Shown: positions 6,001 to 64,000, numbered from the stretch's first letter. The stretch is DNA of 64,000 nt from Yuukianura sp. NJ FZ-2021 (GCA_046563655.1 CM102286.1:7316001-7380000), one strand, 5' to 3'. Numbers and translations are program-made. The notes: generated by a model from the sequence alone, not told the origin.

Positions 6001-7323
6001 GAGGTCGCGCTCTATTTGCATATAAATTGGAAAAGGATTGAGATACCTCTGTCTTTTCTCAAGGCCTTAACGAGGTCCCTTTGGCGGAAATTTTCAAAAT
6101 TCAAAAAAATTTGAAGAAAACTCGCCCCCGGTAAACCCACAACTCATCGTCGCACAACAATAAGTCGGTCGTCGTAAGCTTCGGCTGTCTCGGCTAGAGC
6201 CCTTGAGCTCATAAAAACGGCTTGGGCGGTTCCCTTGAGGAAGAGGCTTCATAGTTGTATGACTCCGGAAGTTTGAATCTTGCCGCCTTTTTCCTGCTTC
6301 AAAAAAAGAGAGAAACGCTTCGGCTGCGCTTCAGACAGTAAGTCGAATAGGAATTCCGGATTTGAACTCCCGTTCCCGAGCTGCCATTAGTTTGTTCAGT
6401 GATGCACAAATGTTTGAGACATGACCTTTATGAAACGATAGTCCGATGTTGTCATGTCACATGACCGCTCGCGTAGCTTCAAAACACGGAACGTGAGCTA
6501 GGTTTTGTGGTTTGTGTCTCTGGAACCGTATGATATGACAATAGCAGGTTCAGATTCATTTCACTTTTTTTTAAAAAAGACGCGCCATGACCATCCATGC
6601 TTTTCCTGAGAGAAAGCCTATTTCAAAATTCCGCGCTTTCCTTTTATGCCGTATGCTTGTCCTCGCTCCTAAACTCCTTTCTGCCTTTTCGGATGAATTA
6701 TTGAGAAGACTGACACGTTTTATCTGGGTCGCTTTTCTTCCATTTTCTTTTTTTCTCTGGAAGCGCTCTGAGGTCGAAAAAAAAACTAACATTTGCAACT
6801 TTCTTTTTTCTGCTCCACTTGGGGAAAGTCTAATGGCCACACATGGTTCTCCAATAAAATAAAAATGAGAAGGCAGGAGATTGAAAGGAAAGTTGGAGAA
6901 AGTATTATTTAGTCACTTTCTTTGACCTGTCAACCGTTTCTTTTTGGCCTCTCTTATGGTAAAAGTAAGAAGGACTTTTGTAAGTACTGTCCCATGTAAC
7001 TCTGGGGCCTGTCTCAAAGTCTGACTTGTCGGACAAGTCCTAACTTCCATGAGAAATGGTTAGGTTAGGAAAGTGCGGTGGACAAAAAGAGAAACTTTGT
7101 CTAAAGTTTCTGGACTTAAACATGAATTGTGTGTCATGATGCTCTTCAAAGATACGCGCGTAACTGCACATGTATAGTACTACGTACTATTACAAAAGTT
7201 ACGTTTTTGACCTTACTGTATAAACTTTGTGTGTGTTTCAGAATTTTGTGACTTTCGTAATCATAAATTTGAGTCAATTGACATTCTTGACAGAATATGA
7301 AACGAGTTTTTGTTTTTTGACAG

Positions 7324-13300: not shown

Positions 13301-16300
13301 GAAAGAAGAAGAAAAAGAAAAAATGGGGTTTCCAACACTGCCACACCCACGACCAATTCAAGAGTTGAACTTTCCTACAACCACAAATTGAAGGAAAAAC
13401 AGGACTTTAAGACCATGACATTATGCATATGGATTCAGACGGAAGAGGGAGGAGGGGGCCTAAAGCCAGTAGTGCTTAAGTGCCACTCGCTACTTGAACT
13501 TTTGGCTCATTTAACTCCGACATTTGCATTTTCCCGCTTAAACTGAAACTGGAAAACCTAAATGGGAGGTTTAATTCGTCTTAAGTGAAAGTGGAATTTA
13601 ATTGCACCGCGCTTTCTAATTTATTTAACTTCATTCAGTTTCATTCGAGAGAAAGGAAAAAAAGAACTTTAAAGCTAATGCCCCAAATGCTGTTTCATGT
13701 GTTGTTTAATTTAAGGCGATTAGAAAAAATTCAAAAAACATGGAATTTTTTTTAAAATTTGTATAAACTTTGCTTAGATTTAAGTTAATTCAGAAAACTT
13801 TTTTCAAGGTTTTTGAAAATGGCCATCTTTGACTTAAGTCAAAACGATATTTGGGTTTTTTTTAAATGTTAGTTTTACGTGTTTTCAATTTTTATTTACA
13901 TGTAACTGCTGCGTTACATGTAACTCTTTACAACTTTTCTTTGAAAGAAACTTTGCTGTGCACAGGTTGAAATTTATGCAGCGTTGCGTTTTATCCCAAT
14001 GGAATTTAGTACAATGCGAATGATATGAAAGTCGACGTTGTCTCTGGTGTCATGTTTTGCAAATCTTGAAGCGTCAGAATCACAATGAAAAACTTTCTTC
14101 TTTCTTCCGTTGAAAGTGTGATGCATAATGCATCTCTGCTGTTCACTTCTACTCCTTTTTTCAAACTTGTCATTTTCATAGTTTCTATGATTGAAGCTAT
14201 GGTAAGGAAGGGAGGTGACATTGCCAGCAATTGTCTACCTTCTCAAAATTTGTTTCACGCTTTCCATAACGCCAGTCGGCTGCTCAGCGCCAGATAAAGA
14301 GTCTCAGAAGGCTCATGTAAGGAAATTCAAAAAATGGCGCCTATTTATAACTCTCTAGTTCCTGTTTGTCTTCCCTGACGCCTCCAGAAGAAAAGGTGGA
14401 GCTGAGTGGGTGTAAGTGTGCAAGAAATGAAATCGTCGGTAATTTAAAAATCTCTTTAAATTGGAGACGTGTCTTTTTCCGGGCTTTAACACAACTTACC
14501 TCACCTGTCAACGTCAAGCAGAACACGTTAGGGACTTTACCTCGCACAAAGTTGGGCGTGTATGCTGCGTTTTCACCAATTTTGAACGGCGACACTGACA
14601 CTGACACGACACTGTCACGCCACGGATTTGAAACTGGCGTGAAAACCATTTATTTCATAAGTGTTTCAAACGAATTAAATTCAAATCCGCTAAAACCTGG
14701 ATAATCACAAAAAAAAATGGTTCAACATTTTTTACCAAAATAACTTATTATCAAACTTTCACTTTTTCAATTTCAGAGTTGGTGAAGATGGTGACTGGGA
14801 AAAAACGCCTGGAATTGTTACAGAAAATAATCGTACAACCCATCAAATCACTGGACTTGACCCATTCGTTGTCTACAGCTTTCAAATTGTCGCGGTCAAC
14901 GCACTGGGTCAAAGTCCACCCAGCAAGGAGTCGTATTACATCGTCACTCTTAGAGAAGGTAAAAAGTCTTGACTTTTGAACTCTTACTTAACCACCGCAT
15001 AACCTTTGACGTTAAAATTTTCACGCTTGACCAATGAATGACTCATAAAAATTTGTTCTGGAAATTTTGCATTTTCTAAATTCTATTTGAAATGAATCAT
15101 CATTTATTGGAACCTTGCAAAAACTTTTTTTAAACGAACGGCATAAAGTTTGATAAGTAGTTTCTGTGGAGAAAACCAGCGCCCGAATCTAGTTTAGAAC
15201 TTTGTACACTTTGGTAGTTTTTGGAAAAACTTCAGTTCCAGTTACACTCTAGCAAGAATCAAAGTGTAGTAAAGTGTTCCAAAATTATTATAGGTTATAA
15301 ATATAAAGACTTCCCTCCAAAGAACCTCCGCTTTCTCCTTTCTCACTAAAAGTTTAATCTGGGAGGCTTCTGGAGAGAAAACGCTCTTGAACAATAGACT
15401 TCCAACGCCAACTTCCAAAAAGGAAAAGACAAAGGCTTGTGGTGGTGATGGTGGTGGGCATTGTTAGTCCCACCATCTTCTTACCCAAAAGGAAGCTCTG
15501 CGAAATGGTGGGGCAATTCTGGTGGGTCCATTTCTAGTTCCAGATAGTTCTCCTAATAAGGTCCCTTGGAAGGATAATGAATGGGACAAGTTGGGCCATA
15601 ACCAGTTGCCTTTTTTGTTTCTGTTCCTACCACGTTCCAGTGATCTTAGCACTACGGTGTGTACTAAAGAACGCTACTGCAGCAGGGGAATAATAATCCG
15701 AGGGAAGAAAAATATGAGAACTTTCTCCAGAAATTTTCTAAAGCACGAGCAAAAAATTTCGTTTTTTATGTTTTTGGAGAGAACACTTTAAGGATCTTGA
15801 TCACAAGTTGGAAAAAAAGAGGGGAGCCTTTTTACGTTGCTTTGGAACGTGAGCATAAAGTATCTTGTCGAGGATATTAACTTTCAGATTTTTTCATTTG
15901 TTTTAGAAAATGTTACAAGTTGCCCAAGATGTTTTTTGCTTAGTTTCATTTCAGAAATTCAATATTTCTGGAAAGGAAGCTGGAAATTTTTGAAAAATGA
16001 AATCGAAAAAGTCGAATTGAGTAAATTCATAACTTGGTTTCACCTGAAGAGAAAGACGTAGTGTATCAAAAGGAGACAATTTTCTAATAAAAAGTTAGTC
16101 ATCTAATGACACCATTTTCTCAAGAGAAACTAACTTTTCCTTTCATGTTTCACAAATTCTGGAGGGAGTAACTATGAAAAGACCCAGCAAAACTCCAATA
16201 AGTTTAATTAAGTCTCGACGACCAAAAGATGAAGTGGAGAAAGTATGAATAGGACGAACGAGGATGATGATGAATTCGTGCTGGTAGAGGTCAAAAGATT

Positions 16301-19300
16301 CTTGTTTTGCGTGGGTCATAAGGGAAGTAACTAAGGAACTGAAAACACAAGCGATGGCCCTAGCTAAAGTCAGAAGGGAGTAACTATAGTGGAAGATATT
16401 TCTAACTTATTAAAAGAGGGAGTTCATTTGTCGCCTCGATGGGTGATGACGAGATTAGGATCCTTGGCGCGCGATAATTCAAAAGTTTTTTTGTGTTCGT
16501 GGAGAAAGTGAACACGTTAGGGTAGTAGCCTAACCTAACGCATAACGTAAATTAAAAGGGAGAAAGTGACTGGCGGAAATTGGAGGGGCATCCGGTAGAG
16601 AAAGTTGGCCAAAGAAAGTTCTAGGGATGGAACTTTCTTCTTTATGAGAAACTAGGGCAACGAAGCGTGTGATTGACTAATTCACAGAAACCTATGACAC
16701 CCCATACTTTCCCCTAACTTAGTAATCAAACCTCTCCGTAAATCAAAGTATTAGTCCACACCTAAACCTTATCCTAACTTCACGTTGTATGTGAAAGTAC
16801 ATCTTTCGCGCAAAAGCACTTTGTGTTTAAAACGCCAAAAATCCAAATTCTAAAGAAAATGTTTTTTTTTGAAACGCAGTACCGGATGGAAAACCAACAA
16901 TTACAAATGCGCAGAACGCAAGCGCAACATCAATTCGTCTCACATGGCGTCCACCGCCACGGAACACTTTGCATGGGGAGTTTCTTGGATATCGTCTGGC
17001 CTTCCGCCCAAGAGACCGCGGACCGACGTCAATTCAAGAAATTTACATACGAGATCCACATGCCGAGGTGATAATTGATTACCTTGTTAGGCAAAATTGA
17101 TTGAATTCAAAATTTTGAACTTTTTTATTTTATTTTACAGACTTTTACAATTCAGAATCTGCTAACATTCACTCAGTACTTGGTTTCACTTCAAGTGTTC
17201 AATCCCGAAGGACTCGGACCCCCAACTACTGTGGCCGTCATCACAGATGAAGGAGGTAAGAACGTGAAAGTCTCCATTTCAAAAACCGCTGCCAATTTTC
17301 TTCTCCCCTGCTTTCTTTTTTTGAAACCAAACTCAAAGGGCGGGAACTTGACAGGGGGAGAGTCAAAGTCGAACGGTTTTCAAAGTGTCGAAGAAAGGAG
17401 TTGAGGTCGACAGGGTGACATTTGACACACCACACCCTACAACTTAACTTTCTTTTCAAAGAAAAAAATAGTGGTCAAGTGTGACATGTCAATGGTGACT
17501 CATTGAAAAGAAATAGCGCCAATCTTCAAAAAGAAAGAAACGACAAACTGTTCACACAAATTTTCACGGCGCGCGCAAAATTTATCTACGACGGTTATTG
17601 ATTTAATTCTCTATTTCTTCTTGCACATTCATTAATGGATTTTCCTTCCTTATTAATAAAAAACTCTAACTAAAACCTTTCTCGAAAAAAAAATCGAAGA
17701 AAGCATTGCACTCAAGCTTCATCATTTATGCATAACGTTTCTGAAGCAGAGATCGTCATTTGAAAATGTTTCCGAAAAAAGAAAATGTTCCTTCATAAAA
17801 GTTTTACTTTCCCTGCCACTCATCCAAAAGTCAAACGGAATTTCAATGTCATGAAGAATTGACGTAACATGTATCTTGCATTTAACCTGGCCTGAACATT
17901 CTTTTAAGTTATGTTACGTTAAAGTTTACATTTGGCAAGCCTATATGTTAGATTTGCAAAACCTGACATGACACAGAACATCACTTGAAAGAGAAACTTT
18001 TTCTTCTGATATCTCAATTCCAAAAAGTGGGTAAAATGAAACGTTCCTTCTAGAGTTTTGAGCCTTTGTTGTCAAATTCTTTGATGTCTGTGGATGTACG
18101 ATTTTTTTGAGTTCAGACTTTAAAGGTTAAAAGAACTTTTAAAAAAGGTTAACTGATTTGAATTGATTCTTTTATATACTAGCCTAGTTTTCATTTTTGG
18201 ATGATTTGCTAATGTATATGCGCTTTAATTGAACTTGAGCTTCGTTAGCTTTGTTTTTTTTTTTTTGTGAATTGTTGTTGGCGTAAATCCAATCTTTTCT
18301 AAAAACTACTTTCACTCTGCTCTCCTGTCAGTCCCAGGCCTTGCAACATTAGAGCCCATCTAGTAACTTGGAACTGACATAAGAGATCTGTTCGTTTAGG
18401 AAAATGAAACGAAACTAGGTACCGTTTCAGCAAAAGTCAAACCGGTACGAAATTTCAGCTGCAGTTGCACCGTGACATAAAAAATGGAAAAAATTATGAA
18501 CAGCTTTAGCTTTAATTTGGAGCCTTCATGTTTCGATTCCCCTTCTCACTTTGTTGCCTCAAAACCGACAAAAGTTCCGACTAATTTCGGTTCGTTTGGT
18601 TTCACAACCGGCGCACAGGTTACCGGTTCCTTAATTTATCACAAAAGAAGCCCTTCTGTTCTAAATGCTAGTCTGTGCGTGTCCCTACGGAGGAATTGTC
18701 GTCCCTTGATATCATCTCCAGAAGTCCTAAAAAGTCCTTCTTTCTCTTCTCTAAATCAAGAGCTCTTGTCTACTACCTCCTTTCCTTTCCCTTCAAAATC
18801 AATTTCCTACAGTTTTTTAAGTTCTCTGTTCTTTTTCCTGGAGGATGATGTTCCAGGTCCACAGTGTTTCTCTTTGCCCCAAGTGAAGTCACAGGAAGAG
18901 TTATAGGATCTTCCCATACTACTACCCATCTGCTGTCACTTTTTCTCCATCTGCTGAGGTCATTTATGTATTCGGAAGACGCAGTCTTCTGGGTCAAAAA
19001 CCTTGCTCAGGAGACATACATTTTGGCGGGAGAATCCGAAGCTAACTTCATTAGGAATCAAGACACTCTGGAACCTCCTTGACTATCTGATCCTCCTCAT
19101 GAACCCTCCACTTTTCAAAGCATTTTTCATTTCAGAACAAGCGCTTTTCATTTCTACTTCAAATTCCAAAAAAAGAAAGTTCTCAAAAATGGTCTTCAAA
19201 CTTTTCCTGATAGCGAAAAAATTTTTTTTTAAACAATTAATTTGTCCTTTTTTCTGAAAAGAGTAAGACACTGGCTATCTACTTTTGCATGTTGCTTTGT

Positions 19301-22300
19301 AATTTTTGTTACATGATGGATGATATTTTTTACTTTTTCAAGATTTTGAAAATTGGAATTTCAAAGCTGGTTTTACTGAATTCTGTTAAGTAGTTTGATG
19401 TATTTACAAGTACTGCTTGAAGCTCGAAGTCAAAAATATGACCTCAAATATTTGTTAGGTTAATTTTCGTCATATTAGGTTAAAGTCATCAAACGGAGAA
19501 GTAAAGGGTGGTAGTGCGTATCGTTTACGTAATTTGAAAAAGGCGGGAAGAAAGTTAGAGAATGAGTTTGCGACATGTTACGGATATGAGCTCATCACTT
19601 TCCAGTCCCTCCTACGTCTTTAACTTGTCTACTTTTAAAACGAAGGGAAATGAGCCTCTTTTCTCTTTCTCGCTAATAAATGGAAACTACTTTCTTTCTT
19701 TTTTTTTTTTTGAAAATCTGTCCCGAAAGACGGGGGGTAATGGGGTCATAACCTTAAAGGAAAGATCCATTAACACTAAACGGACTCATTTTCAAATGAC
19801 CTGCCGCTCCCGCCTCCCCGTTTTTCCTGCTTACGCGAACAGATTTGAGTTTAAACGGCCATCTCCAAAAAGATTTTAACTTAATTAACTTAATTTTGAC
19901 CTTTGACCTTTCATTTATCCAGTTCCTAGTAAACCGCTGAATGCCACTGCTCGGTGGGTCACTGACTCCATGATGGATTTGGCATGGGAACTGCCTGCAA
20001 ATCCAAACGGAAAGCTTGAAGGCTACCGAATTTTCTACATGCAAAGAAATTTTACGGATGTTGTCACAGTCAAACCGGCTCCGGTCAACCTAACTTTCAC
20101 TTTACATAATTTGGGTAATGATTCTTAAAAATTTGACATGTGTTGGAATTGTATGGTGTACGAACTTTTTTTTACTTTGATTAAACAGAGTCGTACACAG
20201 AGTACAAGATTTGGATTAAAGCTTTCACTTGGAAAAATGAAGGAGAGTCGTCGGATGCGATTGTGGTGAAAACAGACGTTGGCGGTCCAACTGCTCCAAG
20301 CTTGTTCAATGTCTCATGTCAAGCCGAAGACGCCCTCTACATTCAATGGCAGAAACCAAACAAGAAAAATAACGCTTCTGTGGACTTCTACTACGTCGAT
20401 TATCGACGCGATGATTGGTTGGAATTCGAAGAACTCACGGTCACCGCCCATTTGGACCAATCGGATCAAAGTGTACGTCCAGCATAACAAAAACCAAAAG
20501 CAAAGCGTGAAAAACATTTTTTCATATACGGATTGTCTCAGTTTGCCAATTTCGAACAAAAATTGTAAAAATTGAAGAAATTTTTGAAAATTGTTCCTGT
20601 TTTAATTCTTGTAGATTCTGCTTCAGAACTTGACGCTGAACGTGGTTTACGAAGTGCGAGTTCGCGGCGGAACGCGTAGTGTTTTGGAACCCGGGAAAGT
20701 ATACAAAGGTCAATTTTCAGATTCCCGCAAAATTCAAATGGAACCGAATTGTGAGAAAACGCGCGTCTACACGCTACCGCAAGCCGCCCACGAGTTCACA
20801 CCAACCCTAGTGTTTATTTCCATCGGAGCTTCCGTATCTCTCCTCCTATTTCTCGTCGTCCTTCTGGTTTGGCGGTAAGGAGCGAAAATTCAAAATTTAA
20901 TTAACGCAAAAAGGCTCAGAGGAACTTGCGGGATTAATCTACTCCGTACAGACCTCGGTAGCCACTGGGATCCAAAAGCAAAACCTTCGTCTGCTGCCCA
21001 TTAATTTCCGTTTCTGTTTACGTTTTGGACAGGAGATGCCTGGGGGGAAGGTACTACTACTTGAATGACCCGCCACGAATTCCCACAGTCTGTACTGGAA
21101 CAGGCTGGAATGGTGACCTCTCTGAGGAAATGAAACAGGCAATTCCCGCTCACTTATTTTCAAAACATGTAGCTGAACTACACGCAGACGGAGACATTGG
21201 ATTCTCCAAGGAGTATGAAGCCTTCCAGACAGTTGCTGTAACTGATGACTATCCGGCTGAACACTCTCAGCATCCCGAAAATCAACAAAAGAATCGCTAC
21301 TTGAACATTTTGGCATTTGACCATACGAGGGTTCGTCTTCAACCGATGCCTGGGCAGAAGAAGTGTGTAGACTACGTCAATGCAAATTTCATCGATGGAT
21401 TTAGAAAACCAAGGGCCTACATAGGAACACAGGGTCCACTGCCATCAACATTCGACACTTTTTGGCGCATGGTGTGGGAACACAATGTCCACATCATTGT
21501 CATGATTACAAACTTGGTGGAGCGTGGGCGGGTAAGAAATGGATACTTTGAAATTTCTTTTCTGTTTTTTTTTCTAAGCCGACATTTCAAGTCTTTTTTT
21601 CTTTTTGTCTTCGCCATTTCAAACCAGAAGTTTTAAATTTTTCCAATCAATCCTTAAACGACAATTCACTTTCTTTAATAAACTTAAACTTTATGCATCA
21701 AACTTTTTTTACAACGTTTAATTTGCAACACAAGTTTAAAATTTCAAAAACGAAGTAGATATGGCGATATGGCATCCGAAATGAACCTAGTTTTTGGATT
21801 TGTGATTTTGCTAGAATGCTGTGTTAAACTAAGGCTTTTGTTAGGTGTGAGAAAGTAAAGGAGCGGGAAATTTTGAAAAACAAGGAAAATTGTGCCTTTA
21901 TGAGACGTAGTCAATATATAGGCATAGACAGTAAAAACAACTAATCTGTCACTTCCTTACCACGTTTTCTTCGAAGCAGAGAAAGTTTTTGCTTTCTCTA
22001 TATTTTCTGTATTCCAAATAGAATTTGGTTAGAGCTTAGAGTGAGCCAGGGGGAAAGGAATAAAAGAAGGATTTATGAATCTGCCACAAACATTTTGTCA
22101 ACCACGAGCTTTTTATTCAGACCAAGGTTAGGCTGGGTTTTTTTTCAGGCTAGGTTTTTCTTTCACAAAAATTTTTCCCTGGGAACTTTTTGTTTTCTGA
22201 ATTTTACATTTTATGAAGCTTTTAGTTTTCTTGCCCTGACTTTCAATTCTGTCACCTCCTCTATTTCTTTTGTTTATTTTATCAACGGAGCAGTACAATC

Positions 22301-24578
22301 AAGGTTGCATTGGTTTGAGCAATGACACTTTTTATTTATGTTTCGACAGAAGAAGTGCGATATGTACTGGCCAAAAGAAGGACAAGAGACTTACGGGGTC
22401 ATTCAGGTCAAGCTGGTCAAGGAAGATGTCATGGCTACCTATACAGTTCGGACACTGCAGCTAAGACATTTGAAGGTACAGTCGGGATCAATTCTCTTTT
22501 AGAACAAAATTAGAATGTTTTTTTTTCAAATTTTAGTTTAATTTTAAAATTTTAGCTAAAGAAGAGAAAGTCGTCCACAATCGAACGCACAATTTACCAG
22601 TATCACTACACGAGTTGGCCTGATCATGGCACTCCCTCTCATCCATTGCCAGTCCTAAGCTTTGTCAAGAAATCTTCAGAAGCAAACCCACCTGAAGGTG
22701 GGCCAATCATAGTCCACTGCAGGTAAAGTTTGACCTTTGACCTTAACAGAAGCAAATATTTAATGAGGTCAATCACTTCTGATGTTTTCGCAGTGCTGGA
22801 GTGGGTCGAACTGGGACTTACATAGTTCTAGATGCAATGCTAAGACAAATCAAAGTACGTGGAGATTTAAATATTTTTGGATTTCTGCACCACATTAGAG
22901 CTCAAAGAAATTTTCTTGTCCAGACAGAAGAACAATACGTTTTGTAAGTCTAATTTTTAAACAAAACAAAAATTTTCATAAAATCGTTTTCTTAAAAAAA
23001 CTTTATTTTTTTTTTTTCAAATTTTCTGTTTTCAGTATCCACGATGCCCTGCAGGAAGCAATTCAATGGTAAGGCTTTCCGTCTCTTACCACGAATGGGA
23101 TTTTTTTTCCAACGTCGTAACTTATGTTAACTAACCAAACCTAATTGACTTGAAATTTAATAATTTTTTCAGTGGAGAAACAAATATCAGTCGGTCCTAT
23201 TTTTCACGCTACATTCATACACTTCTGTCGGGAAGCTACGCTGACGAAAAATGCTCCGTGATGAGTCTACTTGAGTATCAGTACAAGGCAAGTAGAAGTT
23301 TCGAAAAAAAAAATCAAATTACGAGAATTTTTTCAATTTTTTCTAATATTTAAAAAAAAATGTTATTTCATATTTCCAGCTTGTGACACAGTTTGCTCCC
23401 AAAGAGAATCAACTTGCCTCCGCCCTTAAAGTTTACAACTTAACTAAAAATCGTAACTTGGACTGCATATGTACAGACGCTTACCGTGTAATTCTCACAC
23501 CAAAATCCGGACTAGAAGGAAGTGACTACGTCAATGCCACTTTTCTACCAGGTAAAAAAGTTCAAATTTTAAAAATTCCAAATAGCAATTTTTTTCAAAT
23601 TCAAAGTTTTTTTTTGTCCTAGGATTTGAAAGACTCCATGAATTTATTCTGACTCAACATCCAATGGACACTACAGTGGGCGACTTCTGGCAAATGCTTT
23701 GGGATCACAATACACAAATGGTTGTCGTTCTGTCAGCAGCAGATGAGGAAGACTTCCCCATCTTTTGGCCAGGATATGACGATGACCTTGACCTTGGCAC
23801 TTTCCGGGTCAAGTTGGTCCAGGAATCAGACCGAGTTGGTTACGTTCTGCGTGACTTTTCACTCCAGTCGTTGAAAGATGATTTTGAAATGAGCGTTAAA
23901 ATGATCCAATCCTCCCATTGGCCATACCACTGTTCCCTCTCCATTGCTTCCGTCTTTGACTTGGTTCAAATTGTTCAAGACTCCACGGCTTCTGCGTATT
24001 CTGGTCCATGTGCAGTAGTTGACAGGTTAGAATTCAACAAGTTTGTACAAAAATTTATACTTTACCGTGCTAAAATTTTGTCGTTGCTGTGTACAGGTTT
24101 GGTGGTTTGGAAGGAGCTACCTTTTGTGTCCTAACAACTCTGTTCAAACAACTAAATGCCGAAAGTTACATCGACCTTTACATGTATTCCAAGCTGTATC
24201 ACGAGCAGCGTCCCGGTATTTGGAAATCTCCGGTAGGTGTATATGATTGCATTTTGCTTTAAAAAATTTAACGAAATTTTGAAAAACCATTCTTTAACTT
24301 TTCAGGACGATTACTTGTTTCTGTACCGATGTATGGAGAGCATTTTGAATCGAAATTCGAGTGATAGTTGTGATGTCATGGGTAGTCCACATAGTCCATC
24401 TTCTTTTCATCCACCAATAGGAATCGTTGAAACGATTACCCTAACATGTCCACCAGTAACGACACAACTCAATGGTAGAGTTCCTCATTACATCGGTAAT
24501 GGAACAGGCAATGGCAACGGTATTCTGAGAGCAGCTCCTGACGGAATGGAGTCCAGGCACAACGATCCAATTGTTTAA
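7324..24578 (+). CDS. Ptp99A: Receptor protein tyrosine phosphatase, Ptp99A/PTPRG-like (4 FN3 repeats, TM, active D1, inactive D2); 5' signal-peptide exon not identified
   Basis: Phase-compatible exons: 7324-7447, 14777-14958, 16880-17067, 17141-17255, 19923-20114, 20189-20472, 20615-20874, 21033-21531, 22350-22475, 22556-22722, 22794-22943, 23036-23068, 23173-23287, 23380-23551, 23623-24025, 24097-24232, 24306-24578. FN3 starts [49 protein letters not shown]1 motifs [47 protein letters not shown]2 has VVDRFGG (Cys replaced by Asp); [18 protein letters not shown] resembles Ptp99A. Confidence 0.93.
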
Positions 24579-25446: not shown

Positions 25447-28262
25447 TTTTTTTCCAATTTTTTTTTTTTTTTTTTTTTTTTTTACAGTGGGAAAACTTTT
25501 TATTTCTGAACCTTAATTTAAAAACACTTGGATGAAACTTAAATACTAGAGATAAAATATTTCCAATAATTCTCTTCCGGAAGGAAGCGTTCCTAAGATT
25601 GAGGCACAGTTGCCACGTTGCATTTCAAGGCTAATTCTCTGGAAAAGGAATGACGTGGCTTTCTGTTCCCCAGTGTAGTCAGCAATCCGTTGGCCAATAG
25701 ACTTCAGTATCTTCAAACCTTCGTCTCCAATGACCCCGGATGATTCGATTGCGATGATTGATACGATGAAACGATCTTCAAGTTCTGCGTAGACGTTATG
25801 TTTGTGTGTTTCGGCGAGAGCAGCGGCATGTCCGCAGACGTTTGAACATGAGTGGACATAGGATGATGCAAACGTATCCCGACATGTAAAATCCCACGCT
25901 AAGGAACGACCAGACTTCCAAGGAATTAATGTGATGCCATCTGGTCGTTTTCCGTCAGATCTCGAACAACCGGGCGGTTCCTTGATGCTTGGAATTCCTG
26001 CTGAGCGAAGCGCTCGAAAGATTAAGTCGTTGACAGAGTTATGTCTGGAGTGGCGTCCAGCGCTTTTTAAACAGCTTAGGCCGTGAAGTCCGTCGCTAGA
26101 AACTTGAGCTCCGCAAACACATTTGTGTGAAAGGCAGATATCTGAGCCGAGGCGTAGAGCACATGAGATTCTGAAGCATTCGTTATTTAGCAGGGTGCCA
26201 AGTTGAGGAGAAGGAATCGCGTTCAGCCAGTCACCGGCATGTGGAGAAGCGACAGCAAGAAGGCGAGCTTTGTCAGTAAATGTTGAGCCCTTATGAAGCA
26301 GTTCGTTGTAGGTATTTTTACTGATTTCAAATTCCCATTGTTTTTGTAGTTTGGGATTTTCTGGGAGTGGGAAGCCTTTCTCCATCCATTGTGTTGTAGC
26401 CAGATCATAATTGACATCGAAAGGTGACAGACCGCTTGGCAGGAAGAGGTTGACGAGATCAGAACAGCAGTGGATTGAGGCCAAAAACGAAACAGTAGCA
26501 CAATCAACAGCATGACGGATTCCCAGACCTCCTTCGGAGACAGCAAGAGAAGATTGACGCCAAGAGGATTCAGATAAGTTGATGTTCGTGATGTTCACTA
26601 GTACTTGACGAAGACAATTGTCATAGGTTGTCAAAAGGTCGTTTTCCAGGAAAGACGGGAAGCAACGTAGGAAGTAGATCAGCCTCGGGGTAGAAATAGA
26701 TGCTCTTAGGAGGAATAGAGCGGCGTGGGCAGGTAGTAAAGAGAGCCTTGCAGAGAGGCGACTGAAATCTTCTGTTTTCTTTTTGATTATACGACGACAG
26801 GAAGCAGTGTTTAGAGGTGCACCGAGGAGTTCTGCGTTTTCTTCATCAGGGACCCCAATGTCGTCAGCAAACGCGCGAAAAGAATTCACAATTGAGCCAC
26901 TTTCAGATGGACTTGCGTTGAGGACAATAATTTCGCATTTCTTGAAGTTTAGATGTAGGCCAAAAGTAGCAGCATCTTTGTCAATTCGCTTCAGTTCGGA
27001 TAGCACGACCTCAGGAGAGTCTCCAATAGTAGCATCATCAAGGTACCAAACATTAAATTCCGTCTTGATAGAAGTAGCCATAGGATGGACTGTCAGGGCA
27101 AAGAGGGCTGGACCAAGGGGATCCCCCTGTTGCACACCTAGGCTGGACTTGATTCTGCAGGATCCGTAGAACAAGTCGGAATCAGTTGAGTAGGCTTGAG
27201 ATACAAAATTGTAGAAGTCAGGGAAGGTATGTTTTACTGATTGCAGCATTTTGTCTCTTCTAATTAGATTAAATGCGTTCCGGAAGTCCATCTTGAGCAG
27301 CACCTTGGGGGATGAATGAGGAGTATTCGTGTAGATTCTAGCAGCATGGGCAACTGCTTCTGCTCCGTTCTTCACACCGACGCCAACTTGTGTCGGACTC
27401 AGGTATGGTGTTAGATTCTTCATCATTTCGGACAGTACGAGTTTCGAGACTAGGCGTCGCCAAACCAAACCAATGGCTATCGGACGAATGCCTCCAGTTT
27501 TCTTCTCAATGGCGACGAGCGAGGCTCCAAAGAAGAGTGGACGGATTTGATCAGGAAGAGAACCATTGACAACGAGATTGGCTAACTTCGTAATTGAAGA
27601 TATGAGATTGATGCCTGCATCTCCCGTTGATTTTGCGATTAGCTCTTTGAGAATTTGTGGTCGCAAGGAATCTATTCCTCCTGAAGAACCGTTCCGGAAT
27701 GACAGGATTGACTTTGTTATTTGTTCATCTTCAAAATGGATTTCGTATGGCTGAATTTGATCATGATCAGGAAGTTGACTTGGTTCGGGGTGTTTTGGAT
27801 GTAGAAACTGTAGGGCGTCACGCGTGGCAGTATCTTCGGTTGCCAAAGAGTCATCGCAGCAGAGTAGACGAACAGCTCCGTGGATGTCGCCATCAGCAAG
27901 CTTGGAGAGAATCCGGGAGGACAATTTAAAGTCTGAAGGTTTTCTCTGAATGGAGCGAGAAGCGGAATTGGAGTTTGGAAATGAGTGCTGGTTCAAAGGC
28001 AGAGATGAAGGGAAGTTAGAAATCTTGTACTTCACCCACGTTGTTAGATTGGAAACATTGTCAGACTTCTTAGGTGAAGACAGAATGAAGAAAGGAAATA
28101 ATAATAGTCTTGACCAGGACTCCTTGGAATTACACGAGACGACATCATTGATCAACTTGGAAAGGCATTCAGCCGTTGAACGTCTGGCTCCCTTCGGAAC
28201 ATGTTTGAGAGTGGGAACTGATGTTTTCAGATTGGCGAGCAGTAGACCGAGGTCGTGGTTTT
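25447..28262 (-). mobile_element. Non-LTR retrotransposon, CRE-like (RT + restriction-like endonuclease), 5'-truncated
   Basis: Poly(A) tail (T26 at 25458-25483 on + strand, then TTGG and a further short A run), AATAAA at 25499-25504 (minus), exact 13-bp direct repeat GGTCAAATCATTT at 25434-25446 and 28263-28275. Confidence 0.93.
25546..28262 (-). CDS. Retrotransposon ORF: reverse transcriptase + zinc-knuckle-like motif + PD-(D/E)xK restriction-like endonuclease, N-terminus missing
   Basis: Frame is open from the 5' junction (...HDLGLLLANLKTSVPTLKHVPKGARR...) to the stop at 25546; GGIRPIAIG, DFRNAFN, QQGDPLGP, WYLDD, CVCG...HGLSC, RHN, KRPDG..., AWDFTC motifs. No ATG at the 5' end. Confidence 0.92.
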
Positions 28263-28685
28263 GGTCAAATCATTTGTTTACATTTTTAAAGTATACAGAA
28301 CGCATGTGACGCAGTAATTGTGGTGACCACGGTCAATGTCAAACACACTATGGATTTATCAGTTGTATTTTATTGCAAATCGTTTTACCGTTGACTTTAA
28401 CGTTGTGGACTTATGAATGCCCTGACCTCGTTGTAACAGAAGCGTTAGAAGGTAACTCGTGGGGATTTCCATGGCAAAGGTAACGGGAACACTGAAAATT
28501 AAATGTTTATTTATTTCAATCTCAAGTTGTGCTTGTGATTCTCAACTTGATTCTCTGTGCTGTTTGCTAAAGGTAGGTGCTGGATGCAAACCAAACTGAT
28601 TAGAGGTCAAGGACAATCCTCCGTTGGGCAACAGCTCGAGAACCTGTTAACTGTATAGCCTCAAACGAAAATAATCGAGGACGAG

Positions 28686-50259: not shown

Positions 50260-51158
50260 ATGTCGTCTTTTTTGCGTAATCTGTTTTCTGTAGCGTGGTA
50301 CGTGAGAAGCAATATCATCAACATTTGCATTTCATTTTCTAAAAAAGAATATGAAGTTAATTCCTTTTTCTTGTGAATAGCAATTGCACAAGAAGCACTT
50401 CTCGGCTGTTACAAATTCCACTTTTGCCGTGCAGATTCAAGCCTCTTGGATACGATGTCTCCAGTTATCCCGTCCCCTTTTCTAGAAGTATACATGCGTC
50501 CGCTACGTTGTTGTAAGTGTTTAGATTCCAGTATCTGGAGTCAGCATTGGTTTCGTTGATGTCTATAAAACTAAATTTTTAATAGTGCGGAACCATTGAA
50601 GAAAAAGAAGAAGATGGATCCTGCTATCATCCGAGCTAGAGAAGAAAGGAAAAGGAGGCGTCTAGAAAAGCAAATTAGAAGACTGGAGAAGCATCAACGT
50701 CAGTTGAAACCTTTCGACGAAACGGAAATCCCCATCTCTATAATTGATGAAGCGAGGTTGTTTTTATTAATATTACTGTACTTAGCTGCTACAGTAGTAG
50801 TGCACGAATTGCTACTGATGTGTTGAATCTTTGGTATAACTTTAGGCAAAGATCACGGCAACTTCCCCAATTACCAACAGAAGTTACTGATGCCCGTTGG
50901 AAACTGGTGAAGGAGTGGGGAAATTATAAGAGGAAACAAGTCGAAGCAGAAGTACGATTTTTTCAAATGATGAAACACAGTCAGAATGTAGCGTTAGATG
51001 AACTACGTAATGAGTCAATCTTTCTCTACGAACATGCGATCAAGATCGACCGTGACTTGATTCCTTATCAAGTCAAAGGGCCTACCGATACTCCGCCAAT
51101 TGAAAACTACACCTTCGTAGAAGGGGATTACATTGACGTTTCCAGAAAGTGGGACTAA
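50260..51158 (+). CDS. MRPL40: Mitochondrial ribosomal protein L40
   Basis: Exons 50260-50297, 50381-50512, 50586-50756, 50846-51158; presequence then AEPLKKKKKMDPAIIRAREERKRRRLEKQIRRLEK, GPTDTPPIENY..EGDYIDVSRKW; AATAAA just downstream. Confidence 0.93.
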
Positions 51159-51686: not shown

Positions 51687-52128
51687 CATTTTTATTCAGC
51701 ATAAATCGGCAAGAGCTTTCGTTTTTTTGGATGTCAGAGAATTCAGTGGTTTGTTCTCCATTCTTCTTTTAAAAAAACTAACATGTACCTAGTAAATTGT
51801 TTACTTTTATTTAAAAAAAATATTGTATTTTAATAACATTTTTTTAGTACGAGTACGAGACGCATCCACTCATCGTCAGCTGAGCTGTTGTCTCTGGAAT
51901 TGCGAATTGAAGTTTATACTACCTAAGATCAACAACGGCGCGTGGCTTGGAGGCAAGTAAGGTCGTCTCGAAAGTCCAACACCGCCGTCTTTAGTTTGTT
52001 GATACTCATCAGCGGATTGGAAAACGGACAGCAGAAAATTTCTGCTACTATTTTGAAGTAATCGTTAAGCAGTAATTCTTGGTTTTTCGGGTTTCTGGTC
52101 ATCATCATCGTGAATATTGACGAAGGCA

Positions 52129-55100
52129 ATGAATTGGCCTTCATCTAGGGTCAGAGAAACGTTCATACAGTATTTTCTTAGGAATCCCAGACTGCCTCAT
52201 GTTTTTATACCTTCATCGTCAATTGTGCCGCAAAATGACCCATCTCTCGCATTTGTCAACGCCGGGATGAATCAGGTATGTCATTGTAATCCAATTCTCG
52301 TTATTTCACGGTACTAAATCAAAAGGCCGCTGCTAAAGCTTTCTTTTCTAATTTCAGTTTAAGGGCACAATTTTGGGCTATGGAAGACCAAGACATCCGA
52401 GGGTTACCAACAGTCAGAAATGCTTACGGATTAACGACCTAAGTGTAGTCGGAACGGATTCGTATCACCACACATTTTTTGAAATGCTTGGAAACTGGTC
52501 GTTCTCGAATTATTTTAAGGTAAGCATGTTACATGATACTCTGAGCTTGACCTTGGTCTGAGTATACATTTACATACGTGGATAAATGGCTGGCTGAAGA
52601 TGAGGATATCTAAAATTGTCATTGAAATGTTTCCTAGAAAGAAGCTTGTGAGATGGCATGGGATTTGTTGATCAATGTTTATGGACTGCATCCTGAACGC
52701 TTGTACATAACATATTTCTCAGGCGGCGAATCCATCTCTGCTGATCGCGAAACGAAGGAAATTTGGGAAGACATTGGGTAAGCCTAGGTCCCAAGGCCGA
52801 TCATGTAGCAGCAAGGGAGTTTATTCTGAAGAATGTTTATTTACGGGAGAATAAGGATCCGAATCGTATGTGTTATTCTCATTTTACGTGTGCCACAGGT
52901 GATCTCTTGTTTAAACACCTTCGGCAGTATCCCCCCACTTTGCCTGAACGGTTTTAATATTTATTTGCTCGTTTGTGCTTGGCCATTACATTTATTGATT
53001 TTGAAATCGATGACTTTAAATTTCAGTGTACCTTCATCCCGAATTCTTCCATTCGGTAAAGACAACTTCTGGTCAATGGCAAACATTGGTCCCTGCGGTC
53101 CATCCACTGAAATTCATTATGACCACCGAGGAACGTACAACGATCCTAGCAAAGTAAACCAAGATTTTGCATCAGTTGTGGAAATATGGAATCTGGTATT
53201 CATGCAGTACAATAGGTTATGAGCTTAAGCTGAAACTCCCTGGAAGAATTTGATATTCATGGTTTAACTATTCATAATCTTTATAGGACTCCTAAGGGTA
53301 CCTTGGAGCGACTTCCGTTGTCTCATGTTGTTGACACTGGAGCAGGATTGGAGCGACTTACTGCAGTGTTAAATGGGAAAATATCCAACTATGACACGGA
53401 TTTATTTGCTCCAATATTTCAAACTATTCACCAGGTTAGCATTTAAACATTGACGCCTCTTGGGATTGTATAATATAATGATCCAACTAACGTTTTTTTT
53501 TGTTTTTAAGACTGTTGGAGTTCCTATCTACACTGGAAGTTTTCAGCCGGACGCCCAATTAGACTTAGCATACAGAATTTTAGCAGATCATATGCGGGCG
53601 ATAGGCGTGGCGCTTGCAGACGGAATTTTGCCTCAAACCAAGTGAGTAATGCGTTTCCAATACATATACACTTTCGGGTTTTATTAAAGTAAAGCTGTGC
53701 TTCAACGACTAATACGGTTTGTTCCTCTTAATTTAGCCACAAAATACGAAGACTTATCCATCGGTCCCTCTCTATAATTGAGACACATTTCCTGCCTAAA
53801 GTAGACTCGGAGGCAGATATCGTTGATTTTTTGACAGACATTTTGGAGACAGTGAGTATGACAATCTCACACTCATATCCAGAAGTCGAAAAGATGAAGG
53901 AGGAAACCATAGAAATTCTAGAAAGCGAAGTACATCGATTTATTACATCACGAAGGAATAGGACAACTTATCACCCATCACTTCCAAAGTTGCTCACTGT
54001 CGACTTCCCTGCTCTTGCCCGGATTAAGCAGTCGGATCTTGACACGGTAAAAGCAAATGGAGTAGTAGATGGCCCGACGGCGTTCAAATGGTACGTAAAT
54101 GAAATCTATTAATTTATCAATACGAAGAAAGAACTACAACAAATCTACAGTTATGGGTATTCTTTTTCTATTTACCAGGTATGATTCCAATGGCGTGACA
54201 GACGAAGCAGTAGCAGAACTTTGCAAAACCCTCAATATACGATTCGATCTCGACGGGCTACAAATGGAAATGGACAAAGTGAAACGCGTTTTTCGAGAAG
54301 ATGTGGCCAAACAGCTTTTATCCAGTGAGGAGAGTCTGTTCGTCAGAAAGATTGAGTCGTTGCTGTCTCTTTATAATCCACACACCAGTGGAGGTGTATT
54401 CGAAACCAACTTTGACCTAAAAGCTGGTCCAGTCGTCCAAGTCGAATGGGTGTTTGATTGTGATGGAGACCTCGTCGAAGAGCTGTCCGCCGATGAAGGT
54501 TCGTCGTATTGGCTACTCCTAAATCGAACTCCGTTCTTTCCCGGATCTGCTTCTATTGTAGCCGATATAGGCACTATAGAGTTAGAAAACAATTGTCATG
54601 TTCCAATCGTCGATGTGAAGCAGCTTCCGTCTGGATGGATCCTCCACTTAATTACTGTACGTAATTCTGCAATAATTGAATTGAGGATTATGGTTAATAT
54701 TGACATAATGATGGTAAAGGCTAACAAGAATTTTTCTCCAGGATGTACCCGAAATTGGTGTGCGCAGGAAGGCAGAAATACTGGGGTACACTTTGGACCA
54801 ATCAAGACGAGTCGGACGAAGTCTAAGCTTCAACGCAATGTACTATGTCAAGGAATGGCTAAAAGCTAACTTTGGAGTACTAAGATTCAATGAAGAATTT
54901 GTATCCTGGGATCACATAAGACTGGAGCTGACGCTTCTAAACGGAGAACTAAATCACTCGTATGTGCGCAAGTGCGAAGAGCACGTCCGGAAACACAATA
55001 TTCCTATTATCCTGAACAAGAAAACATGGAAGCAAAACGGTGTCTATGACCTTGTCTTTGCTACTGGAGATTCAGCTAATGATTCTATATCAGTCGGGAA

Positions 55101-55867
55101 AGAACTATCGGAAATCATCATGGATCTCAAGCAACTACTCACCACGGCAGAACAAAACTATGCTGTAATTCGGAACAGTATACGAGAACGGGTTGATCAT
55201 CTGTACGATTACATTCATCATGAAGAGACTTCAATTCCTTATGAAATATCTTTGAAGGCAGAGAAAATCATCAATGAAGCAGAACGTCTTTTAGAAAAGA
55301 ACGAACTTTTATTTGAAACTGCCAGAATAGCGAACGAGTTGCGTGAAATAACGGAAATGGGTCAACCGTTTATTGTGGAAAGATTTAACAGCGACGTTGA
55401 GTTTCCATCTTTAATCAAACTCACTCGTGCTGCAGGCAAGACTCCGGCCATTGTCATAGTCGATTCTCCAGATGGATACATCCAAGCACGATGTTCAGTT
55501 CCAGAGGTAAGCCACAAGAAATTTAAAAATTTCGAAAACTTTAAAATTTTGAAATTTTGATTTCTGAATTTGTCTTTAAATTGTGACCTTTATGTTGCAG
55601 GGAATTGTGACAGAAGAGTTCAGAGCGGATAAATGGATGAAGAGTTTTGTGAGCGAACTGGGGCGTGGAATTTACCAAGCACCGCGAGGCCAGGACCCAA
55701 AAACTGTCGTCAATTTAAAGCGAGTGCGAGTACCAAATTTGGCTGAACGTATCACGCAAGGAATTCAAGCTGCACGAGACTTTGCCGCCTCCAAAGTCAA
55801 CTCTGAAGGTTTAGAAGTACTGAATGAAACAAACAGTAACACTCAAAGTCAGAAGACCAGTGACTAA
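52129..55867 (+). CDS. AARS2: Alanine--tRNA ligase, mitochondrial type, divergent C-terminal half
   Basis: Approximate exons 52129-52275, 52358-52519, 52637-52777, 53027-53215, 53287-53434, 53511-53642, 53737-54090, 54179-54659, 54742-55506, 55601-55867. [88 protein letters not shown]. The true start may lie upstream. Confidence 0.9.
52788..52898 (+). pseudogene. Gnaq: Isolated G-protein alpha-q exon inside an AlaRS intron
   Basis: ag/GT CCC AAG ... GCC ACA G/gt, 111 nt, encodes (G)[36 protein letters not shown], matching G-alpha-q [36 protein letters not shown]; no other G-alpha exon seen in the window. Confidence 0.85.
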
Positions 55868-59138: not shown

Positions 59139-60867
<1,729 letters not shown>

Positions 60868-61643: not shown

Positions 61644-64000
61644 ATGTTAGCTGGAAAGAGTGATAGTTTGTGTGGTGAAAGCAATCAATCGGAATTCGAT
61701 TGTACTTGCTGCATGGATTTCCTGGATCTAACAAATGGTGAGTTGAACCACCTCAAACCTGACTTTCATTATTTTCGTGTTTCTGCATTTCCGCACACGT
61801 CGTGCACTTGTATTACACTTACGATTTCTTAAGAAAACTTTTACTTTCTTCTCCACAAAAAAATTCTAAAGACTTTCTCCACTTAAAGTTTCCGTCTAAT
61901 ACTGATTTGACGGCGGCACGCATTTTGCAAGCCATGGCGTACCAGCATGTCTGTCATGGAACTCCAAGCCAAGTACTTCCCTATTCGACCTCGAGGTGTG
62001 TTCACGGTAGTTTAGAACAACAGTAGTGCCAGGGAAAGCTTGTTCAAAAAAAAGGTCAAAATTTAGTTCAAAATTTTTCTAAACACTGGTTCAAAAGATT
62101 TGTTTTAAAAGGGGGAGTGATGTCCACTGAACTGAGGAATGCAATTAAAGTTGCTGCGCTCTACCCTCCAATGCAACATGAAGAAAAGGCTTGTAATCAG
62201 CAGAAGCTGCGAGAACCTAAGCAACTTTACAGCGCCACTTCACTACAGCATCCTCCCAAGTGGCCAATAGAATGTCAGGTAATTTTAATTAAAAAAAGCT
62301 TGATTGGAATATTATGTGTTGAAACTTTTTAACACAAGTTTTAACTCAAATGTTTCAACTTAACAAATTGTAATAAATTTGAATAGGTTGTTCCAGAAAA
62401 AGTCGAGCAACTAAATATTCCACCTACAATTCCGGAACCGTTTTATGTAACAACAAATTCAGAACCGCAACCGAGGCCAGTCGGAGAGGAAATGGGAACT
62501 GTAATTTACGACTATCAGCCAAAACTCTGCGTTGATTATGTAATACATATTTAATAATTACATTTTACAAGTCAATTTCAAGAGAAAAATGAAATTTTTT
62601 GATTTTTTTCTCAAGTATTGTCGTTCATCTTTTGTTGGAGCTGAGGAACTAACAGCCTATGATTTTGATGAAACGACACTGAAATTTGAATCGCGGTTTG
62701 AAGGTGGAAATCTTGCAAAAGTAATTAAGGTGACCAACGTTTTTTACGAACTGTACCTCCGACCAGATATGTACACAGACAGACATGCGCAATGGTACTA
62801 CTTCCGAATACGAAACATGAAAGAAAATATTGTTTACAGGTGGAGTTGTTTGATATACTATGTAAATTATTGAAAATGGATTGCTTAGAACAGATTTTGA
62901 TGAGTTTTGTTCCTATTGTTGGGGTTTCCTTAGATTTTCAATAGTGAACTTAAGTAAGGCCGACAGTCTGTATCGGTATGGAATGAAACCACTTCTGTAT
63001 TCAGAGAAAAACGCTCAAATGAATGGCGTCGGGTGGATGCGAACTGGCCACAATATTTCATACTACAAAAACGACATTATGTAATTCCAATGTGGTACAA
63101 TAATTTTTCAAAAACAAATTAAGTTTATATGTGCTTTTATTTAAATAGGATGACTGAGAATTCTGTTACGTACACTCTTACGTTCAACTTAAAATTTCAA
63201 CACAGCGATGATACGGTTTATATTGCTCAGTGCTATCCCTACACATACTCAAATCTCCAATTGTATCTACAGGAAATTCAGGTTATACGCAAACAAGCGA
63301 TGTTAAAAGTTAATAATTTGAATTAATTATTCCCTTAAGCTGTATTATATTTTATTCCGTAAATTTTAGTCTGATCCACATAGAGCGCGTCTTTGTCAGC
63401 AGCGTCTTTTGTGCAAGTCCTTGGCAGGAAATAATGTTTATGTGCTGACCATCACAGCTCCAGAAAGTCAAGAAGAAGAAGAGCAGGTCAAAGTTAGTCC
63501 TAAATATTTTAACCACACATATTTTGTTGTCCTCTAATTTGCCACAGAACAAAAAATTTCTCTGTTTAGAAGCCAGCAATCGTGTTAACGGCTCGTGTTC
63601 ACCCTGGAGAAAGTCCATCATCGTTTATGATGAAGGGGGTAATTGACTTCCTCACAAGTGAAAGTCCTCATGCGGAGGTCAGTATAGCTTTGAAAGCATA
63701 AGTATTTGTGTACCGAACCTCTAAAACTACATTGTTGTAATTTTTAGGTTCTGCGGAATCGTTTCATATTCAAGATAATTCCGATGTTGAATCCTGACGG
63801 AGTGGTTGTTGGAAACTCAAGGTGCTGCTTGTTAGGTCAAGATTTGAACAGACAGTATCGAACTGTTCTACGCGAAGCGTTTCCACAAATTTATCAAAAG
63901 AAAGTCCTCCTCCGACGACTTGTGGATGAAAACGGGATTTTTCTATATTGTGATATTCATGGCCATTCCAGAAAGAACAATGTTTTCATGTACGGTTGTG
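61644..64000 (+). CDS. AGBL2: Cytosolic carboxypeptidase (M14D, CCP2/3 / NnaD-like tubulin deglutamylase), 3' end outside the window
   Basis: Approximate exons 61644(or 61713)-61737, 62112-62278, 62387-62539, 62616-62839, 62934-63080, 63149-63281, 63370-63486, 63569-63677, 63748->64000. [66 protein letters not shown]-terminal block suggests the CCP2/3 group. Start codon uncertain. Confidence 0.9.

Follow-up and report, generated by a model that had tools for sequence, protein, structure and literature searches.

Breaks in DNA can be patched with sequence taken from elsewhere. In humans, templated sequence insertion polymorphisms (TSIPs) of class 2 are described in PMC5110952 as resulting from capture of a patch or filler at end joining, and fragment capture at breaks in yeast (PMC1976456) as well as numt (nuclear mitochondrial DNA) patches at double-strand breaks (PMC2567098) have also been reported. 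In break-repair intron gain, as portrayed in part of PMC3443670, end joining of a staggered break inserts foreign DNA, with short direct repeats at the limits of the insert. Here we describe an intron of an AlaRS (alanyl-tRNA synthetase) gene that holds an inserted segment of 160 nt, including a complete exon copied from a gene for G-alpha-q (Gq), a G protein subunit. The intron lies in a stretch of 64,000 nucleotides from Yuukianura sp. NJ FZ-2021 (GCA_046563655.1 CM102286.1:7316001-7380000), referred to as the window, with positions being counted from its first letter. With a probability of roughly 0.88, we consider the insert to be a templated capture of an unspliced Gq fragment into an existing AlaRS intron during break repair, and a passenger that has no function.

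As is the case for class 2 TSIPs, the insert is a short copy (in the range of tens to hundreds of nt) of a distant, intact and transcribed locus, at a site where other genomes have no insert; there is microhomology, there are untemplated letters, and there is neither poly(A) nor a target duplication of 5 nt or more. The donor locus is kept elsewhere, i.e. it was copied and not cut. Unlike human TSIPs, the insert occurs in a hexapod and the patch is a complete exon with both of its splice sites, positioned in sense orientation in the intron of another gene. The 4-nt repeat observed here is a further difference, because class 2 is described in the passages cited as being without a target duplication, whereas class 1 is described as having one of 5 nt or more, together with poly(A) (PMC5110952). 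The foreign nature of the insert and its short direct repeats are shared with break-repair intron gain, but an 89-nt intron was already present, so that growth rather than birth of an intron is involved.

Insect Gq variants, including those of Lygus hesperus, switch after Pro292, and one variant is without residues 291-326 (sections of PMC4553527); for Drosophila exon 7A, a portion of PMC5765363 places V303 on helix 4, as part of the eye isoform. The insert encodes the first of the tandem alternative exons of the arthropod 7A/7B arrangement, but lies outside any Gq gene. It also resembles exon shuffling by intronic insertion, in that an exon of symmetric 1-1 phase has been put, together with its splice sites, into the intron of an unrelated gene; unlike in productive exon shuffling, the host intron is of phase 2 while the exon is of phase 1-1, there is a stop in the AlaRS frame, the acceptor tract has been lost, and there is no sign of use.

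The AlaRS intron and its Gq exon

The host intron, its two flanking exons and the copied exon are as follows.

52638..52777, + strand: AlaRS exon upstream of the intron; ends ...EIWEDIG in phase 2 (GG/; GAC ATT GG); Pfam tRNA-synt_2c positions 100-139, E 2e-7
52778..53026, + strand: AlaRS intron, filled allele, 249 nt; GT at 52778-79, AG at 53025-26 (TTTCAG end); 89 nt when empty
52788..52898, + strand: copy of a Gq alternative exon of 7A type, 111 nt, phase 1-1; helix alpha4 to strand beta6, Gq residues about 291-326
53027..53215, + strand: AlaRS exon next after the intron; matches positions 142-207 of Pfam tRNA-synt_2c (E 4e-16) and PDB AlaRS (E 2e-17)

Judged by its predicted product, the host gene is certainly an AlaRS. 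Because the flanking exons cover consecutive tRNA-synt_2c positions, the host AlaRS is intact, with nothing missing at the intron. The intron begins GTAAGCCTAG, and its donor, GTAAGCCT, is identical in alleles with the insert (filled) and without it (empty). Introns of 82, 118, 249 and 71 nt were read in this part of AlaRS, making the 249-nt intron the oversized one.

The segment, which a preliminary description made from the sequence alone had picked out as being AG/GT-bounded and stop-free, can be read directly: an AG at 52786-87, i.e. 10 nt into the intron, and a GT at 52899-900 (GTGATC) bound 111 nt, of which 52790-52897 translates to 36 residues. The limits and phases of the Gq exon are kept, with (G)GT encoding Gly followed by Pro-Lys, and ACA G/ leading to Asp, as in the ...YDGPK... 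and ...CATD... of arthropod models.

The same description had proposed the alpha4-beta6 region of Gq as the identity of the segment, a claim open to contradiction by any protein search; matches to PDB chains, to arthropod models and by tblastn all agree with it. Among PDB chains, phmmer with the 36-aa query gave residues 291-326 of Gq/G11 as the best match (E 1.4e-5), with Go, Gs and Golf far behind. In a large protein collection, searched with a 42-aa window reference around the Gq-like segment, 16 proteins were returned; the top four named ones are arthropod Gq models, and these, from Frankliniella fusca, Nymphon striatum, Kerria lacca and Rhynocoris fuscipes, match at 76-82% identity with E values of 7e-20 to 9e-17. 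These models are overlong (380-473 aa) and carry two tandem versions of the exon, the first beginning DHVAAREF... and the second RDA..AREFILRMFVDLNPD...; the identity of 76-82% is with the first, compared with 44-51% with the second in the same four models, which upholds the likeness to an arthropod splice variant that had been pointed out at the outset. Searches of the whole 64-kb window with six Gq proteins (tblastn) gave E values of 3e-14 to 2e-11 at 52788-52898. The Pfam G-alpha family scores the 36 residues alone at E 0.07 (12.7 bits against a cut-off of 48.8), as expected for a single short exon.

On its translation, we thus take the segment to be an alternative exon of the arthropod 7A type of Gq. 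Orthology to Drosophila exon 7A appears probable from the exon order in other arthropod models, rather than from alignment to the fly sequence, and the names 7A and 7B are taken second-hand from PMC5765363; the label 'photoreceptor' would be by analogy with the Drosophila literature only. The tblastn searches with the six Gq proteins revealed no other Gq exon in the window with an E value below 0.08. A Gq-like match at 59291-59383 (E 0.085) was rejected, being a real exon of TTLL1, bounded by AG and GT. An exact 40-nt scan for the exon in metagenome contigs gave 0 matches.

Empty allele, parent locus and junctions

Five DNA runs carry the stretch, and public contigs from X1, X2, X3 and X5 were compared with the window at 80% likeness. 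Runs X1-X4 share one sample, possibly that from which the window derives; X5 bears the label of another organism, here organism B; in the AlaRS region, 45 letters in 666 differ between the window and organism B (record 25). Calls of joints between separated parts of the window were subject to a 31-nt rule for the shorter side. The features revealed by this comparison are listed below.

52782..52941, + strand: inserted segment, 160 nt, with limits that could equally be placed up to 4 nt further right; X5 record 25 and one X2 contig do not have it
52782..52785, + strand: left GCCT copy of a 4-nt direct repeat, a target duplication or microhomology; the 4 letters fit either side
52784..52939, + strand: match to the parent Gq locus, 156 nt, 4 differences, no gaps; X5 record 26, X1 records 4 and 7
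52899..52939, + strand: Gq intron stretch after exon 7A, 41 nt from the donor GTGATC; parent contigs (records 7 and 26) run through it
52940..52941, + strand: untemplated TT, found neither in the parent, which differs after 52939, nor in the empty target, which resumes at 52942
52942..52945, + strand: right copy of the GCCT repeat
Empty target: ...GGGTAA GCCT GAACGG...
Filled allele: ...GGGTAA GCCT AG(exon)GTGATC...CCCACT TT GCCT GAACGG...

The insert is present in the lineage of the window and absent from organism B, a related genome (a comparison of this intron among relatives had been suggested): in X5 record 25 (709 nt), 52344-52781 is joined directly to 52942-53169, with sides of 438 and 228 nt. 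The empty allele keeps GT...AG, with 89 nt between the same exons, similar in size to the neighbouring introns. The same 52781>52942 joint occurs in an X2 contig of depth 73.5, whose shorter side, at 29 nt, is under the 31-nt rule; the empty allele is thus probably also present in the window's own sample.

The filled allele is represented, in each case with 0 differences from the window, by X1 record 1 (52000-52828), X3 record 19 (52712-52859) and X1 record 6 (52861-54000, as part of a 21,975-nt contig), the last having the letters peculiar to the copy at 52891 and 52909. Contigs cross the two junctions of this allele, which argues against misassembly.

Several observations concern variation in this region. 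An X3 contig of depth 38.9 has a joint 52785>52998, with a shorter side of 33 nt and letters between the two positions that are not known; it may represent a further empty, divergent haplotype, or a third form of the intron. The window's own sample contains a second haplotype that is ~10% different in an intron (X2 record 8, with 19 other letters and 7 gaps in 191 nt, 52474-52664) and that has most of its variants in common with organism B, which suggests that pooled animals or very high diversity lie behind it. At 52047-52105, just upstream of the AlaRS start, X2 and X5 have 24 other letters replacing 57 nt, a second indel by which the haplotypes differ.

The parent Gq locus, a search for which had likewise been suggested, was found in public contigs, and the extent of the copy is 52784-52939. 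The locus is present in both organisms and is separate from AlaRS, with parent contigs in X1, X2, X3 and X5. X5 record 26 (495 nt) matches the full extent, and the 117 nt preceding and 222 nt following it do not resemble the window; in X1, 52784-52828 is matched by record 4 (8419 nt), with 1 differing letter, and 52861-52939 by record 7 (3638 nt), with 3, each being unlike the window beyond. These loose ends of the parent recur, the left one in X1, X2 and X5 and the right one in X3 and X5. The unitig shared by copy and parent (52799-52890) has a depth of 67.6 in X1, close to the sum of the AlaRS side (35.8) and the parent contigs (23.8-28.7), and the segment therefore exists in two copies rather than as a repeat family; no further copy of it was found in the window.

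Four letters distinguish copy and parent. At 52891 the copy has T and the parent C (TGT/TGC, silent), and at 52909, in the intron part, the copy has G and the parent A; the parents of the window's sample and of organism B agree at both positions. A third difference is placed by us at 52798, the third letter of an Ala codon, where it would be silent, from the ends of the unitig and assuming 31-letter words; the fourth lies within 52892-52939. On this reading, the copy and the parent exon of its own sample would encode the same peptide. Since parent and copy align without gaps, the one extra residue relative to vertebrate Gq (GNAQ), to which the preliminary description had drawn attention, is a trait of the parent exon and not a product of decay.

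X1 record 7 contains, at its positions 2497-2523 and thus ~2.5 kb downstream, a second exact 27-nt match, to 52874-52900 (the YSHFTCAT codons plus G/GT), which is probably exon 7B and would fit the tandem 7A/7B layout of arthropod Gq models. In the parent, therefore, the last 27 nt of exon 7A and the donor recur exactly at the probable 7B, the alternative exons differing elsewhere; this identity at the DNA level may have arisen by gene conversion or by constraint on the region of the splice site.

At the left junction, the CT of GCCT (from 52784) is common to target and parent; at the right, the parent match ends with T 52939. The insert has no poly(A) and no run of A, and the GCCT repeat is only 4 nt long. 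The copy took in no more than the last 2-4 nt of the intron upstream in the parent, and is for this reason without a pyrimidine tract, as had been recognised. The 41 nt of Gq intron that follow the exon similarly bear out the proposal that the source was unspliced and not a retrocopy of an mRNA. A processed retrocopy was accordingly rejected, given this intron sequence after and before the exon, and with neither poly(A) nor a long target duplication being present.

Mechanism and competing explanations

On the reading that we favour, the pre-existing 89-nt AlaRS intron would have been broken about 4-8 nt downstream of its donor, and end-joining repair would have taken in a copy, of ~154-156 nt, of the unspliced Gq gene. 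The copied piece would begin with the final 2-4 nt of the intron upstream in Gq, run through all 111 nt of exon 7A and end 41 nt into the intron that follows. The parent Gq locus would have stayed intact at its own place in the genome, and because it is intact, no effect on Gq is expected. It had been proposed that capture of a Gq fragment either enlarged or created the AlaRS intron. The empty allele and the limits of the parent match support capture; since the empty allele still has its intron, the intron was enlarged, and the alternative that it was created falls away. As to its consequences, the insert is most likely a neutral or slightly harmful passenger, if its predicted splicing properties are a guide.

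Some points count against this interpretation, or limit its reach. Within the window's own sample, support for an empty allele is slender (the X2 contig, with its 29-nt side), and firm absence comes from one run of organism B, at ~5x; contigs demonstrate presence rather than absence, and X1-X3, which share the window's sample, are not independent of the assembly. At 4 nt, the target duplication is short enough to be explained by simple microhomology as well. That the segment has no function and is not spliced is what we infer from the DNA, as is the break-repair mechanism itself. Both differences in the coding part are synonymous (that at 52891 directly, that at 52798 by placement), which could hint at constraint; a copy derived from a parental haplotype with silent polymorphisms would, however, be just as likely to carry silent differences, and two silent changes do not show selection.

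With respect to the template, a DNA fragment, copied DNA and reverse-transcribed pre-mRNA all fit, and sequence alone cannot tell DNA from RNA in this case. It is possible, though the less probable choice, that unspliced Gq pre-mRNA, or an excised intron containing a skipped exon 7A, was reverse transcribed and used as the patch, an origin also put forward for human class 2 insertions. The source is transcribed and the copy spans an exon-intron border; according to PMC5110952, transcribed sequence is over-represented among human class 2 insertions, and inhibitors of reverse transcriptase reduce their occurrence. An intact reverse-transcriptase open reading frame (ORF) of 907 aa is moreover present in the window, at 25549-28269. 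Against an RNA template, such junctions are also explained by a DNA fragment, whether free or copied, and neither poly(A) nor a long target duplication marks the insert.

An effect of the insert on AlaRS expression appears doubtful, although it merits consideration. The copied acceptor, being 10 nt from the AlaRS donor, cannot pair with that donor. The exon read in the AlaRS frame gives 21 residues and then a stop, and read-through from the upstream AlaRS exon into the intron meets GGG TAA at once, in agreement with what had been stated of it. The sole plausible effect on AlaRS would be splicing from the copied donor at 52899 to the AlaRS acceptor at 53026, yielding an mRNA that retains 121 nt (52778-52898) and meets an immediate stop; a share of the AlaRS mRNA from this allele would then be lost to nonsense-mediated decay, amounting either to a mild defect or to a selected brake. 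Such use would be favoured by the copied donor, CAG/GTGATC, lying 128 nt from the AlaRS acceptor, a size typical for the genome, and by the 249-nt intron being unusually long for this gene (neighbours 71-118 nt), and the stop directly follows the start of the retained intron. Conversely, the authentic donor, TGG/GTAAGC, is closer than CAG/GTGATC to the usual consensus, and the absence of the insert from organism B speaks against a needed regulatory function.

More improbable still is the stronger form of this proposal, i.e. that the spliceosome uses the copied donor to a measurable extent, and that the filled allele is in consequence hypomorphic for an essential AlaRS, probably the mitochondrial one, with drift or selection on dosage keeping it in the population. 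Were this so, the filled allele would be a natural segregating experiment in exon delivery, with a complete phase 1-1 exon and a live donor placed in a gene with short introns.

That the segment might be a working Gq exon, either within a Gq gene so large that AlaRS lies interleaved with it or by way of trans-splicing, had been mentioned as a lesser alternative, and both splice signals, the reading frame and the phases are indeed intact and fit Gq. Several findings now effectively exclude this alternative: a 7A, probably followed by a 7B ~2.5 kb downstream, is still present at the parent locus, the insert is missing in organism B, the acceptor is without a pyrimidine tract, and the 64 kb, home to at least seven other genes, contain no further Gq exon. 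Equally negligible are the proposals that the filled form is ancestral, a 160-nt deletion having made the 89-nt intron (deletions, too, can occur between 4-nt repeats such as those at the limits), or that it is an assembly chimera, because a deletion would have had to excise exactly the Gq-matching stretch (52784-52939 within 52782-52941) and the Gq genes of other arthropods have the exon in place, making Gq the source, while contigs of three runs, albeit runs sharing the window's sample, bridge both junctions, the right one with copy-specific letters.

AlaRS, its neighbours and implications

The conserved AlaRS N-terminus begins 5 residues past the Met codon at 52129, and the ORF there is without a presequence. 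The C-terminal third of AlaRS (54718-55864, + strand) is unusually divergent: the ORFs at 54718-55557 and 55580-55864 have no Pfam match, including to tRNA_SAD and DHHA1, and a homologue search with the former gave 3273 candidates, of which 0 were at E 1e-10 or better. The runs also contain a second AlaRS paralogue, reading ...GNWSFGDYFKKE..., with loose ends at 52462, 52500 and 53204; only conserved motifs match the window (52462-52500 and 53176-53204), with divergence beyond. By these contigs, the genome has two AlaRS genes. An X2 joint, 52494>53176, was rejected, together with the loose ends, as a variant of the present locus, being due to the paralogue having conserved motifs in common with it. 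These features of AlaRS and the presence of a second paralogue would fit a divergent organellar (mitochondrial) AlaRS copy, without proving it.

The other genes identified in the window comprise an MRP-L28 family gene, a UBA-domain gene, an amino-acid permease, TTLL1, a cytosolic carboxypeptidase, a receptor tyrosine phosphatase and the reverse-transcriptase ORF; details for five of them are as follows.

7200-24200, + strand: receptor-type tyrosine phosphatase, taking up the first third of the window; two exons encode phosphatase-domain sequence, and fibronectin type III repeats are present
25549-28269, - strand: reverse-transcriptase ORF, uninterrupted over 907 aa; RVT_1, E 1.6e-18; G+C 0.46 versus about 0.39
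50575-51155, + strand: mitochondrial ribosomal protein L28 family gene (Pfam MRP-L28), about 1 kb upstream of the AlaRS start and on the same strand
59150-60480, + strand: TTLL1, tubulin polyglutamylase subunit; best named match Folsomia candida, 91% (single exon)
62540-64000, + strand: cytosolic carboxypeptidase, M14 with its N-domain; adjoins TTLL1

The reverse-transcriptase ORF is probably that of a young retroelement. The TTLL1 match, though of a single exon, indicates a hexapod and probably a springtail. The cytosolic carboxypeptidase family removes glutamates from tubulin, and a writer (TTLL1) and an eraser (the carboxypeptidase) of tubulin glutamates are thus neighbours on one strand.

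The results change neither views of Gq signalling nor those of AlaRS. The type of event, a scar of DNA-break repair, is known; what is new is a well-documented instance of it. In annotation, masking of the segment as a fragment of Gq origin is advisable, since gene finders may otherwise call a Gq pseudogene or a chimeric AlaRS-Gq model, and the presence or absence of the 160 nt would provide a handy PCR (polymerase chain reaction) marker for lineages of this animal. More generally, the locus offers a clean natural case of intron growth and exon transport, in which the donor, the empty site and both junctions are readable, and, with its mismatched phases and lost acceptor tract, it illustrates why most exon deliveries fail.

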